This document shows positions 3,001 to 6,000 of a DNA stretch of 7,315 nt, one piece after another. Source of the DNA: a virus (lineage: Duplodnaviria > Heunggongvirae > Uroviricota > Caudoviricetes); IMG/VR virus record IMGVR_UViG_2778260969_000002; one strand, 5' to 3'. The position numbers were made by a program. Numbering within the stretch: position 1 is the first letter of the stretch; every line of letters starts with the position of its first letter.

Positions 3001-6000
3001 CATTTTGCTGGTACGCACGCCAAGCATGACAACGCCACCGTCGATACCAGGCGCACTTCTTTGCTCCAGTTTTTTGGTCTTAAGCCACAGGGCAGTGAAC
3101 AGGTCTTTCCAGTCTTCCGGCGCCAGCCGTTGACCATGCCATAGCACCTGACGCGAAACATCGTTCAGCATCGGCCACATGCGGTCATTCTGCGCTTTGC
3201 TGCGCTTGGGTTCTTTAACGTGGACTTCGTGGGGTGACTTGTCGTCGATGGGTAGTGAGAGAATGGCGTCTATGGCGTTATTTCTGATTGCTTCGTTGCG
3301 AAGCAGAAAGGTTTGCTTCATCTCCTGCTCTCCGGTTCCATTTTTCAGTAGCCGCAGCAACTGATGGTGCCCATGCCACCCTGGCTTCACAGAGGTCACA
3401 TTCTGCATAGCCCCACACATCAATATTTATTCCGGCCTCAACCCACAGACGAGCATTACCGCCGCAAAACGGACATTCTTTTAGCTTTGGCTGGGTTAAT
3501 GATAGGTCGCTCATGCTCACTCCTTCACTTAAAATCCAGACTCCGGATAATTCTGTTGCGCTGAAACTCATTGTTGAGTTTGAACAACCGTCGAAGAACA
3601 CGGTCACGCGGATAGCGTCGTGCGGCAGGTGAATGCTCATACAACTCATCAAGCGGCAAACTGGACGATGAACGATACCGATACCAACGCACCAACTCTT
3701 CACGAAAATTAGCCCTGACAAGCTCAGCTATCGTACTCATTTCTTAAAACCTCCTCAAACGCATTCTGACGCATTTTTCATTCTCGCTGCTTATCGGTAT
3801 ACCTTGCACGTGCTTACCTCACCACAGAGCGATTGTGATGCCTTAAAAGCGATTTATTGAAGTGATATTTGCTTAATCGAAATTCTTTTCTTTGATTCCT
3901 GCGGCCCTGATGGCTTTCATTACTGCAATTACCGTTTTGTCACGCCCATCCTCATAACCCATCGCATAAGCACCTTCTTCACCATCTTTCCAAAGGTCGT
4001 CATTCGATTCGGGCCAGTCGATATCCAGTTCAATAGCTGCTCGCGATGCCTGCCATAAAGCCCACCAATCATTTAAGGAGTGACGAATATCCATGCTTGA
4101 AAATGCGAAGTACCTATCACCATTTCTTGCCTCGGTTATCATCTCGAATGGTAATCTCAATTTTTTGGCAACGTATTCCTCAAACTGCTTTCTTGATTCG
4201 TCCATATCAATCACCGTTAGTCGTTTCACTCACGAATCTGACAAAACCAGCCATGTTAATTTGCATGAGTTTTTTCAACACTTTGTCTCGTCGGCTACGT
4301 TTTGGTTTTGGCCTGTGATTGAATCTTTCACAAACTGGAAGGCTCGATGATTTCCAGTACCTATTACGCCTTGCTCCATCTTCAGCCATATCGGCATGAA
4401 TAAGGTCTGCGAGTGTGCTCATATTCACCTCTTCCAGTTACATTGGTTTTGTAATGTTGCTAGTCATCGTTCGAATAACAAAATGCGTAAGTAACCTTGC
4501 TTTCCACATGTAAATCTATTCAAGGCGAGATAAATCTACGAATACCGGACCTTTGTAATCTGGTCTTGATGCCCTTATGTATGAGCTAATAGTTTGTGCA
4601 TCTTGCTTGTCCAGATTCATGACTTCCCTCTCCCCCAAATAAAAAGGCCTGCGATTACCAGCAGGCCTTTATCTTTTTTTAACACGCTTTCGAGTCCTTT
4701 TATATTTTTCCTTAAGATATTCCGCAAGTTTATCCTCATCATTATTAAATTGAGATAAAAGCTCATGCTCGCAATTAAGTGCTTTACTCGCATAAGTTCC
4801 ATATAGTTTCTTTCTTGCTAGTGCTGCTATGAATGCTGCATCTTCTTTGCTATCGAAATACCCTAACGATATTGTCTTATTTTTATAACCAACATAAGAC
4901 TTCCACCTGCCAGTTGGCTTATACCAAGACACTCCAATTGCACCGGATGTGTTTAATCTATTCCCTACAATGTTTCTTGCATTCTGCTCTTCTGTTGCCA
5001 GTCTTAGGTTTGAAATCCTATTATCAAGTCTGTTCCCATTTACATGATCAATAAACTTAGGAGGCCATTTTTTGTATACATAGAACCAAGCAAGTCTATG
5101 CGCCTTATACAAAACATTATTTATACTAATGCATATATAACCACCACTAACACCTCCAGCAATACTACCTTTTACTCTTACTACTGAATTTGTTTTTAGC
5201 CATTTAAATATTCCTGTTTCTGAGTCATATGATAATGTTGACAGAAGCTCATCGTGATCAATTAGTTTTTTTATTCGCATAAAGAATATACTTAATAATA
5301 TATACAGTAAGAACCATTAGTAACGATAACCCTGCTATTAGCTCAGTGATGTAGATGGTCATACGTCAGCCCCTTGTGCATATCGTCTGCCACGCGCAGC
5401 AGGTGCATTTGATGCTGTGCAAATCTGTCTGGCTTCATCCTGGTCACATGCAACAAAGTGTCCGTTACAGAACCGCTGGTAAACTGTACCAAGCGAGCCA
5501 AAACGGTTTTTCGTCACGATGATTTCAGCAAATGGCGCGGCGCTACTGTTCTCATCATATACCGCTTCCCGATAGAGCATGATGATTGAGTCTGCGTCCT
5601 GTTCAATGCTTCCTGAATCACGCAAATCTGCGTTTGTCGGGCGTTTGTTTGGTCGCTTCTCAACATCGCGCGAAAGCTGACTCAGGGAGATAACCGGTGT
5701 TTTCAGGTCTTTCGCCATCGCCTTCAGGCTTCCGGAGATGTGAGCAATTGCGAGGTCGTTGCGGTCTGCTTTCGGCTTCTCAATCAGGCCAAGATAATCC
5801 GCCATGATGAGTGACAGGTTTGGATTTTCCTGCTTATGCCGTTCTGCGATTGAGCGTATTTCTTCGACCGATAACCGCGAAGCATCGACTACCCATACAT
5901 CCAAATCTGCAAGCTGACTCATGCCGTTAGCAACACGTGCCCAGCCCTCGTCATCCATCGATGCAGGATTTCGCAGTACGCTAACCGACATCCTCCCGGC

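Follow-up and report, generated by a model that had tools for sequence, protein, structure and literature searches.

Two DUF7301 alleles and a PF26207 gene between the replication genes and ninB of an Stx-phage locus: a probable mosaic of accessory genes

The Stx-converting prophages that drive virulence in E. coli O157:H7 contain many early genes for which no function is known. In lambdoid phages, the interval that runs from the replication genes (P/DnaB) to ninB carries small, non-essential, delayed-early genes, among which Ren counters Rex exclusion, while Lar/RalR alleviates type I restriction, as reportedly shown by King and Murray in 1995. Members of two further families probably share these properties with Ren and Lar/RalR, namely DUF7301 (PF23975, PHROG 1785), to which Orf-69 of ST64T and orf69 of phage L belong, and Phage_phiTE_015 (PF26207, PHROG 343), represented by Sf6 gp48, 933W L0091 and the orf86 type of phage L and ST64T. 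Lambda Ea22 and P22 EaD provide another point of comparison. They are pro-lysogenic, modular products of the exo-xis region with variable acidic C-terminal domains, and an NMR structure of the C-terminal domain of lambda Ea22 is published.

We analyzed a window of 7,315 nucleotides, the stretch of the IMG/VR virus record IMGVR_UViG_2778260969_000002 (Caudoviricetes) to which all positions refer. Three small open reading frames, all on the minus strand, lie between the DnaB and HNH genes on one side and the Lar and NinB genes on the other (Table 1). A preliminary description of this DNA had assigned them to the ren slot that separates the replication genes from ninB, and this position was confirmed, as were the gene calls, the net charges of the products (+7, -7 and +7) and the Trp-rich character of the acidic frame. 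That description recognized no family for any of the three proteins, which proved incorrect: the two basic proteins match PF23975 (DUF7301)/phrog_1785, and the acidic protein falls with PF26207 (Phage_phiTE_015)/phrog_343. Both families are already catalogued, and the DNA of the locus is already present in GenBank and RefSeq, where it has 100% identity to published Stx phages and O157:H7 chromosomes.

Table 1. Features of the interval between the replication genes and ninB (positions in the window)
Feature	Position	Strand	Remarks
NinB/Orf recombination mediator	2875..3321	-	phrog_72 E=1.1e-60 and record annotations; downstream edge of variable slot
Lar-family restriction alleviation gene	3278..3514	-	78 aa; 3' end overlaps ninB start
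DUF7301 copy B	3525..3740	-	71 aa, basic; strong Shine-Dalgarno GAGGAGG; PF23975 E=3.8e-26, phrog_1785 E=2e-33
Non-coding spacer, acidic gene to copy B	3741..3872	-	132 nt; travels with PF26207 3' half
PF26207 (Phage_phiTE_015)/phrog_343 protein	3873..4205	-	110 aa, acidic; phrog_343 E=1e-29 over residues 1-110
Recombination joint inside acidic gene	4040..4075	-	conserved WQASRAA motif
DUF7301 copy A	4207..4422	-	71 aa, basic; Shine-Dalgarno GAGGTG; PF23975 E=1.6e-31, phrog_1785 E=4.7e-35
Small ORF	4516..4620	-	34 aa; Shine-Dalgarno site; between terminator and copy A; phrog_21123 E=1.7e-20
tR2-like intrinsic terminator hairpin	4643..4670	-	10-bp stem; terminator scan and inverted repeat; upstream slot boundary (NinA/tR2 region)
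HNH-AP2 homing-endonuclease-like gene	4669..5280	-	between DnaB and tR2 boundary; PF13392 E=2.9e-15, AP2 E=1.6e-6, phrog_99 E=9.2e-72

The terminator stretch at the upstream boundary matches a region of Sf6 annotated as tR2 together with the boundary sequence bsq6, and also matches the ninA terminator of phage L. The 34-aa ORF next to it covers positions 1-34 of the 60 positions of the phrog_21123 profile and is probably a truncated member of that family. The HNH-AP2 gene co-occurs with copy A in 1717-type loci and belongs to the same lineage-specific left-hand segment. At the other end of the slot, the earlier proposal of a Lar neighbor was upheld by scores above the cut-offs of both PF14354 (E=2.3e-9, 37.8 bits; cut-off 28.6) and TIGR03655 (E=7.6e-17, 61.4 bits; cut-off 39.6). 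With a phrog_599 match at E=1.5e-38 and both zinc-ribbon CxxC pairs (CPFCGG and CDLC) present, the gene is assigned to the Lar family on its sequence.

Membership in DUF7301 was taken to require full-length profile coverage and a score above the PF23975 gathering cut-off of 27 bits. The scores, over profile positions 1-64 of 65 in each case, were 108.6 bits for copy A and 91.4 bits for copy B, and on these profile matches both are assigned to PF23975/phrog_1785. Because both lie far above the cut-off, their paralogy is not a matter of chance. The two proteins (each net +7; pI 10.35 for copy A and 10.8 for copy B) are 45% identical over 56 amino acids (BLASTP, E=2e-16) and their genes 44% identical, in keeping with the earlier account of two 71-aa paralogs that differ strongly at the DNA level. 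That account also proposed an old duplication. The copies are indeed old paralogs, but duplication in place found no support, since copy A is closest to the Salmonella P22-like Orf-69 type (64% amino acid identity to phage L/ST64T orf69) and copy B is a near-invariant Stx-phage allele; a repeat search of the locus revealed no DNA repeat linking the two. In length and in their invariant residues (RY..S.LP and RD.VL), copies A and B agree with the Orf-69 proteins, and they occupy the family's usual interval between the replication genes and ninB. The difference from other DUF7301 carriers is that here one phage holds two alleles that have diverged to 45% identity, the proteins themselves being no different. 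The AF2 model of copy B (pLDDT 78.8) contains helices at residues 4-25, 30-35 and 44-69, which predicts a basic helical hairpin for DUF7301. Comparison with Ren by hhalign revealed no relationship (probability 0.06%), and none was found when DUF7301 was compared with PF26207. Neither Ren nor Lar is related to these families in sequence, and any likeness of role to them is an analogy by position.

The acidic protein (pI 4.75, five Trp) is assigned to PF26207/PHROG 343 through its phrog_343 score and the precomputed PF26207 hits found on all 120 of its listed homologs (96% identity and below), rather than through a direct PF26207 score. It has in common with Sf6 gp48, 933W L0091 and the orf86 type a full-length phrog_343 match, the N helix, the WQASRAAIE helix, the AGIKVK tail and a place upstream of ninB. 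The scaffold motifs SRxQFExW, WxxWQASRxAIE and AIRAAGIKVK were all present in the alignments, in which F8, W51 and S54 are invariant and R5, R55, A102, G103 and K107 are conserved in at least 90% of sequences. Conserved and variable segments alternate along the protein: a conserved N helix (residues 1-16), a variable segment V1 (17-43), the conserved WxxWQASRAAIE helix (44-58), a variable, acidic and aromatic segment V2 (59-89), and then the conserved C-terminal AIRAAGIK helix and strand. This conserved-variable-conserved layout is found in 488 PF26207 clusters at 50% identity, and the AF2 model (pLDDT 69.6) is a small mixed alpha/beta core. The V2 loop carries a net charge of -10 along with Trp and Tyr, and net charge ranged from +3 to -11 among sampled members of 80-154 aa. 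Reassortment of PF26207 alleles is visible in the homolog alignments, where one V1 segment was paired with two different V2 segments and the DIDWPE-type V2 was found with at least six different V1 segments; the allele in the window joins an mEp213/Sf6-type V1 to an acidic DIDWPE-type V2.

One phage record names a PF26207 homolog "similar to P22 EaD", and the last 41 residues of the acidic protein, including the AGIKVKGE tail, show a weak alignment to the C-terminus of EaD (hhalign E=6.6e-4, probability 27%). EaD/Ea22 and PF26207 proteins are both modular with swappable domains, and a fused DUF551 occurs in some Ea22 variants and in PF26207 relatives, in the latter joined to the same N-terminal module. 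However, the acidic protein is smaller (110 aa versus 182-197 aa), its AF2 model has no coiled-coil such as that of EaD/Ea22, and its gene lies in the nin region of the pR operon rather than in the exo-xis region of pL. No solved chain matched the PF26207 profile at E<=10, and so none of the C-terminal domain of lambda Ea22 did. Given the weak 41-residue alignment, the lack of a PDB match and of a coiled-coil, and the nin location, we did not assign the acidic protein to the EaD/Ea22-like group. Lax Pfam scans of 29 family members found one DUF551 fusion and otherwise noise, and an apparent PF26207 match in P22 was rejected as an artefact of a DUF551 tail in the HMM.

A recombination joint lies within the acidic gene. 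When window positions 3400-4500 were used as a Megablast query, the match to most Stx phages extended over query positions 1-658, so that identity ends at window position 4057. To the left of the joint is DNA of the common Stx-phage allele; to the right is mEp213/Sf6-like DNA, this upstream part being 98-99% identical to mEp213, mEp235 and Sf6. The alternation of conserved and variable segments, together with recombination at a conserved motif, makes PF26207 a reasonable candidate for a target-specific modulator. The spacer between the acidic gene and copy B has a mean column identity of 97% over five loci, including one (L089) whose downstream DUF7301 gene is diverged. It had no Rfam match and a fold z-score of -0.39, giving no sign of an RNA element, and a scan found no consensus promoter or terminator site in it. 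Elsewhere the genes are closely spaced, with 1 nt between the stop of copy A and the start of the acidic gene, which are probably translationally coupled, and 10 nt between copy B and Lar. The tight packing reported earlier holds at these two junctions but not across the 132-nt gap, which had gone unmentioned.

Of the 207 phage records that matched, 6 have the three-gene form (at least 80% of the query covered), as do 52 of the 787 E. coli genomes that matched; the remainder have window positions 3400-4057 alone in common. Most Stx phages carry PF26207, the 132-nt spacer, copy B and Lar, and no copy A. Among the loci with either family, 62 have both adjacent, nearly all of them near-identical Stx-phage DNA; 26 have DUF7301 without PF26207, 8 have PF26207 without DUF7301 (Gally, Sf6, mEp213, and Hafnia, Enterobacter and other loci), and in 2 (L081 and L099) both are present with other genes between them. 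The order P-Ren-NinA-DUF7301-Lar-NinB, with Ren beside DUF7301, was seen in L011 and PhiR12_2, and NinA-DUF7301-NinB in L090 and L091. The slot of P22 is empty of both families, and in Salmonella phage L and ST64T orf69 (DUF7301) is followed by orf86 (PF26207) after an 11-nt spacer. The two families were adjacent in the majority of sampled loci, in both orders; as the sample is biased to near-identical Stx-phage DNA, it yields no proper co-occurrence statistic. The survey for conserved synteny in lambdoid phages returned DUF7301 alone, PF26207 alone or neither in other phages. The term cassette, or module, does not fit genes that assort independently and whose occurrence as a trio is rare, lineage-specific and mosaic, with an internal joint. 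Some room for functional pairing is left by the adjacency of the families, phage L and ST64T included, and by copy A and the acidic gene, which are 1 nt apart and oppositely charged (+7 versus -7). The two families were found in 787 of 5426 complete E. coli genomes, about 15%. Of 72,556 plasmid records, 10 and 13 carried them, with no conjugative plasmid among these, and an association with plasmid leading regions was rejected because these records were few and resembled prophage fragments.

The preliminary description considered the proteins to be without assigned function, and in this it was right, as the databases and literature searched gave no function, solved structure or paper for PF23975 or PF26207. 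The PDB, queried with the single proteins and with profiles of both families, returned nothing at E<=10; NCBIfam had no match for the three proteins, the PADLOC defence-system models, searched to E<=1, matched none of the three or Lar, and a structure search gave no informative match to known folds for the DUF7301 or PF26207 models. The literature search found no mention of DUF7301, PF26207, phiTE_015 or their PHROG numbers, and for L0091, L0092, 933Wp31 and 933Wp32 the matches listed contained merely unrelated uses of those strings. A type II toxin-antitoxin assignment was rejected, since the families occur singly and had no Pfam or NCBIfam toxin-antitoxin match. An Ocr/ArdA-type assignment was likewise rejected for a protein of 110 aa whose net charge of -7 is restricted to residues 59-89 and which had no fold match.

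Because two catalogued families shuffle independently, we read the locus as an ordinary mosaic and not as a new three-part anti-defence device. We consider it fairly probable that the region is a collection of independent, non-essential accessory genes in a lambdoid variable slot, and not a three-component system. Recombination would have assembled two diverged DUF7301 alleles around one PF26207 gene in the slot that follows the tR2 terminator, between the replication genes and ninB. The joint at WQASRAA would thereby fuse the HNH gene, copy A and the 5' part of PF26207 to the 3' part of PF26207, spacer, copy B, Lar and NinB of an Stx phage. Judging from position, expression would be delayed-early, from pR after N-type antitermination through tR2. 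Each product may then work alone as a small binding protein, a mechanism we propose with low confidence: the helix/strand core of PF26207 would display two interchangeable segments that set target specificity, V2 being here an acidic, aromatic loop, and the DUF7301 hairpin would have nucleic acid or the acidic surface of a protein as its ligand. By analogy with Ren and Lar, the role is most likely a conditional one in host interaction, counter-defence or inter-phage competition. Deletions that take part or all of genes 46-58 recur in Sf6 and speed its life cycle (PMC5630979), and gene 48, inside this range, was identified here by comparison as a PF26207 homolog. An anti-defence role is made plausible solely by association, given the Ren/Lar slot and the tolerance of Sf6 for these deletions. 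A mosaic of this kind is unsurprising for a lambdoid nin region; the practical gains are modest and no long-standing question is opened. Since the supposed cassette consists of separable modules, testing of single genes is appropriate.

It is unlikely that PF26207 is a display scaffold with two recombination-swappable segments and conserved motifs as crossover points, with DUF7301 as a facultative partner. Such a scaffold might allow lambdoid phages to direct a small inhibitor quickly at new targets among polymorphic proteins of host defence or of competing phages, with DUF7301 as a frequent partner, for example as a nucleic-acid-binding helper. If true, Stx phages would encode modular counter-defence proteins of a class not yet described.

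That the three genes act as one anti-defence or host-takeover module, with two basic subunits, an acidic protein and possibly Lar, seems quite improbable. The short distances at the copy A/acidic gene and copy B/Lar junctions, the complementary charges, the recurrence of the families side by side (62 of the loci sampled, and phage L/ST64T), and the occurrence of the counter-defence genes ren and lar in the same slot would all fit such a module, but the rarity of the three-gene form, the joint inside the acidic gene, the many phages with one family only and the 132 nt that separate the acidic gene from copy B do not. Nor did the PADLOC defence models or known folds give a match, and both families are nearly absent from plasmids.

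A narrower proposal, that DUF7301 and PF26207 form an antagonist pair, toxin-antitoxin-like or effector-regulator-like, in which the acidic partner neutralises or guides a basic effector, is also quite unlikely. DUF7301 does without PF26207 in 26 loci and the reverse holds in 8, most Stx phages have the inverted order with the 132-nt gap, and the alleles of the partners do not co-vary, the same V1 type being found with copy A or without any DUF7301. No resemblance to known toxins or antitoxins, in fold or in family, was found for either protein. The opposite charges and the order DUF7301 then PF26207, with spacers of 1 nt in the window and 11 nt in phage L, two distant phage groups, are the points in favor of a pair.

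PF26207 lies directly upstream of ninB or lar-ninB in every context seen, several of its alleles overlap the ninB start, and the V2 loop joins its net charge of -10 to Trp and Tyr. These features are consistent with a recombination or replication accessory that acts with NinB/Orf or SSB, the loop mimicking the acidic tail of SSB or ssDNA. We nevertheless give this reading a low probability: nin gene order is generally conserved, so that adjacency is weak evidence, V2 and charge vary across the family, many NinB-bearing phages (P22 and PhiR12_2 among them) lack PF26207, and Sf6 tolerates the deletions (PMC5630979). The earlier suggestion of a DNA mimic, here an Ocr/ArdA-type protein that blocks restriction enzymes alongside Lar, is very improbable despite the net charge of -7, the pI of 4.75 and the location two genes upstream of Lar, as the charge is modest (-0.06 per residue), is confined to one variable segment of 31 aa (-10 in 59-89) and is no family trait (+3 to -11), the AF2 model is a small mixed core rather than an elongated acidic helical bundle, no fold matched known mimics, and the family is hardly found on plasmids.

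Substitutions between DUF7301 alleles were least frequent at codon position 2, more frequent at position 1 and most frequent at position 3 (for example, 25/9/33 and 21/13/35), and 10 of 11 changes between near-identical copies were at third positions. This codon-position pattern argues that the frames are real and under purifying selection. The same test favors the frame of copy B as the coding frame over an overlapping long "Lar" ORF. PGAP already labels both paralogs "DUF7301 family protein"; in many phage records, copy B is mis-annotated as an N-terminal extension of Lar.

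The genes of the window all lie on the minus strand (table). The preliminary description had given the lengths, charges and paralogy of three small genes, and recomputation reproduced these: copies A and B are each 71 aa with a net charge of +7, share 45% amino acid identity over 56 residues and 44% identity at the DNA level, and the acidic protein has 110 aa, five Trp and a net charge of -7. The 1-nt and 10-nt spacers that it reported also exist, between copy A and the acidic gene and between copy B and Lar respectively, but 132 nt separate the acidic gene from copy B. The genes do occupy the slot where lambda carries ren, 3' of a tR2-type terminator and 5' of lar-ninB; the Sf6 and phage L records label the homologous stretch tR2 or ninA terminator.

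Features of the DnaB to Roi region of the window
Feature	Position	Strand	Match or remark
DnaB-type helicase	6735-5359	minus	
HNH-AP2 endonuclease	5280-4669	minus	
Terminator-like hairpin	4643-4670	minus	10-bp stem
34-aa ORF	4620-4516	minus	phrog_21123, E=1.7e-20
Copy A (DUF7301)	4422-4207	minus	PF23975, phrog_1785
Acidic gene	4205-3873	minus	phrog_343
Non-coding gap, acidic gene to copy B	3872-3741	minus	132 nt
Copy B (DUF7301)	3740-3525	minus	PF23975, phrog_1785
Lar, 78 aa	3514-3278	minus	
NinB	3321-2875	minus	
Dam, NinE, isrK/C4 RNA element, Ant, Roi	downstream of NinB	minus	

No family had been recognised for the three proteins; by profile matching and the annotations of homologs they are members of PF23975 (DUF7301) and PF26207. 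Copy A matched PF23975 at E=1.6e-31 and copy B at E=3.8e-26, phrog_1785 was also matched, and PGAP labels both genes "DUF7301 family protein" in O157:H7 chromosomes. The range of DUF7301 is narrow, comprising phages of Escherichia, Salmonella, Klebsiella and Cronobacter, with Orf-69 of ST64T and phage L included. The acidic protein matched phrog_343 (E=1e-29), and PF26207, a newer Pfam model (Phage_phiTE_015), appears in the precomputed annotations of all its homologs; members include Sf6 gene 48 and 933W L0091. When 1.8 billion representatives were searched with a PF26207 profile, 488 clusters were returned, nearly all of 80-135 aa with full profile coverage. PDB sequence and profile searches found no solved relative of either family, NCBIfam and PADLOC gave no curated name or defence-model match, and a literature search on both found no paper. 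Stx2 phage 1717, Stx2a_F349, Stx2a_WGPS4, SH2026Stx1 and many O157:H7 chromosomes carry the 1.1-kb stretch with the three genes at 100% identity. Public databases already contain the sequence and both families; mildly new are only the picture of PF26207 as a scaffold with swappable segments, an annotation error at copy B and the mosaic nature of the supposed cassette.

The proposal of a three-gene cassette did not hold. Among the matches, just 6 of 207 phage records and 52 of 787 E. coli genomes had the whole stretch; the rest covered window 3400-4057 alone, with Lar, copy B, the gap and the acidic gene's 3' half, and the best-matching records reached 98.5-99.5% identity there. Identity breaks at about codon 50 of the acidic gene, exactly within the conserved WQASRAA motif, and the DNA upstream of the break (the 5' half of the gene and the tR2 region) is 98-99% identical to mEp213, mEp235 and Sf6, which have the acidic gene without DUF7301. 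Copy A has 64% amino acid identity to Salmonella Orf-69 versus 45% to copy B, and a repeat scan of the window found no DNA repeat joining the two copies. From these comparisons, the most fitting reading of the three-gene form is a lineage-specific recombinant of two slot versions, each with its own DUF7301 allele, and we lean towards the evolutionary and structural part of this reading, a mosaic of separate slot genes.

Among the loci examined, a biased sample with adjacency counts too skewed for a co-occurrence statistic, DUF7301 and PF26207 were adjacent in 62 (nearly all one Stx-phage DNA), DUF7301 occurred without PF26207 in 26, PF26207 without DUF7301 in 8 (including Gally, Sf6, mEp213, Hafnia and Enterobacter), and both were present with other genes between them in 2. 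The orders with DUF7301 alone include the lambda-type O-P-Ren-(NinA)-DUF7301-Lar-NinB and DnaB-NinA-DUF7301-NinB; in P22, gene 12 and ninA are followed directly by ninB and the slot is empty. Since the two families adjoin each other in either order, also in the distant phage L (orf69 followed by orf86, 11-nt spacer), a facultative functional link is possible. Three rival explanations are each unlikely: an antagonist pair of DUF7301 and PF26207, PF26207 as a NinB/SSB accessory factor, and a coherent trio, against which stand the rarity and recombinant nature of the three-gene form and the occurrence of each family alone. A fourth, the acidic protein as a DNA mimic, is less likely still.

Delayed-early expression from pR would follow antitermination, copy A and the PF26207 gene would be translationally coupled, and each product might be a small binding protein whose benefit hinges on the host or competitors, by analogy with the condition-dependent benefit of Ren and Lar. 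Sf6 repeatedly drops genes within 46-58, speeding up in the laboratory (PMC5630979), a range that takes in its PF26207 gene, 48. A strict counter-defence role appears rather doubtful. The tests run did not place the proteins in the Ea22/EaD, toxin-antitoxin, DNA-mimic or known defence families.

In the PF26207 alignments three elements are conserved: a helix at the N-terminus (MDESRxQFExW), a helix with a strand in the centre (WxAWQASRAAIE-IEL) and another such pair at the C-terminus (AIRAAGIKVK). They are parted by two variable segments, V1 (residues 17-43) and V2 (59-89). One V1 pairs with two unrelated V2 segments (Sf6/Gally versus 1717/mEp213) and the DIDWPE-type V2 pairs with at least six V1 types, so the halves reassort at the conserved central motif. 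In the AF2 model of the acidic protein (pLDDT 69.6) helices 3-16, 44-56 and 90-101 with short strands correspond to the conserved elements, and V2, which contains W64, W72, Y80 and Y84, is poorly defined. All of the excess negative charge of this allele lies in V2 (net -10), and net charge ranges from +3 to -11 among the family members sampled, which argues against the suggested DNA mimicry across the family.

The last 41 residues of the acidic protein weakly resemble the P22 EaD C-terminus, which is no more than a pointer to the modular Ea22/EaD group. A long relative of 346 aa (P0305) has two PF26207-type N-terminal modules fused to DUF551, and DUF551 proteins adjoin DUF7301 in two distant loci (L088 2642-3249 and L099 885-1735); together these hint that small proteins of the lambdoid nin and ea regions share interchangeable modules.

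DUF7301 is predicted to fold into a basic hairpin, with helices at residues 4-25 and 44-69 connected by the invariant RY..S.LP loop (pLDDT 78.8); fold searches gave only generic matches. Codon-position statistics identified the DUF7301 frames as the selected ones, under purifying selection. Phage records including NC_011357 and NC_049943 omit copy B and carry a 141-aa "Lar-like" ORF (3278-3703) across it in another frame. Copy B and the 78-aa Lar are the true genes, as shown by the Pfam score, the Shine-Dalgarno sites and the substitution pattern over codon positions.

At the upstream edge of the slot, an HNH-AP2 gene insertion separates DnaB from the NinA/tR2 boundary, and the stop codon of this gene and the terminator hairpin overlap. 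In phage 1717 an ISEc8 also lies between DnaB and HNH (L001 5934-8375); the window lacks it and therefore derives from an IS-free relative, for example of the Stx2a_F349 or SH2026Stx1 type, or from an O157:H7 chromosome. The 34-aa ORF follows the tR2-like hairpin, precedes copy A and has a good Shine-Dalgarno site; it covers only positions 1-34 of the 60-position phrog_21123 profile and is thus probably a truncated small gene. At the other boundary, "...ASQRSNQK" ends unrelated genes directly upstream of ninB (window 3278-3321): Lar in the window, and PF26207 alleles or phage L orf98 elsewhere (homologs P0019, P0022, P0024, P0035 and P0036; gp59 of locus L096; orf98 of locus L084). Since this tail overlaps the ninB start in a different frame, it behaves as a fixed junction sequence inherited by any upstream gene.

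Further downstream, an RNA element (1950-2148, minus) precedes ant (1897-1133, minus). It gave Rfam matches, with scores above or near the gathering scores, to isrK (2059-2135, 74.7 bits), C4 antisense RNA (1950-2033, 66.7 bits) and the a1/b1 target (2096-2148, 45.9 bits), and is a P1/P7-type antisense-RNA control element before the antirepressor gene of this Stx phage. Within ant, a 30-nt unit repeated 3.1 times (1612-1705) encodes a repeated 10-residue peptide. Near the window's right end, upstream of the helicase gene, 2.6 copies of a 14-nt AT-rich unit (7093-7132) might be part of a replication origin.
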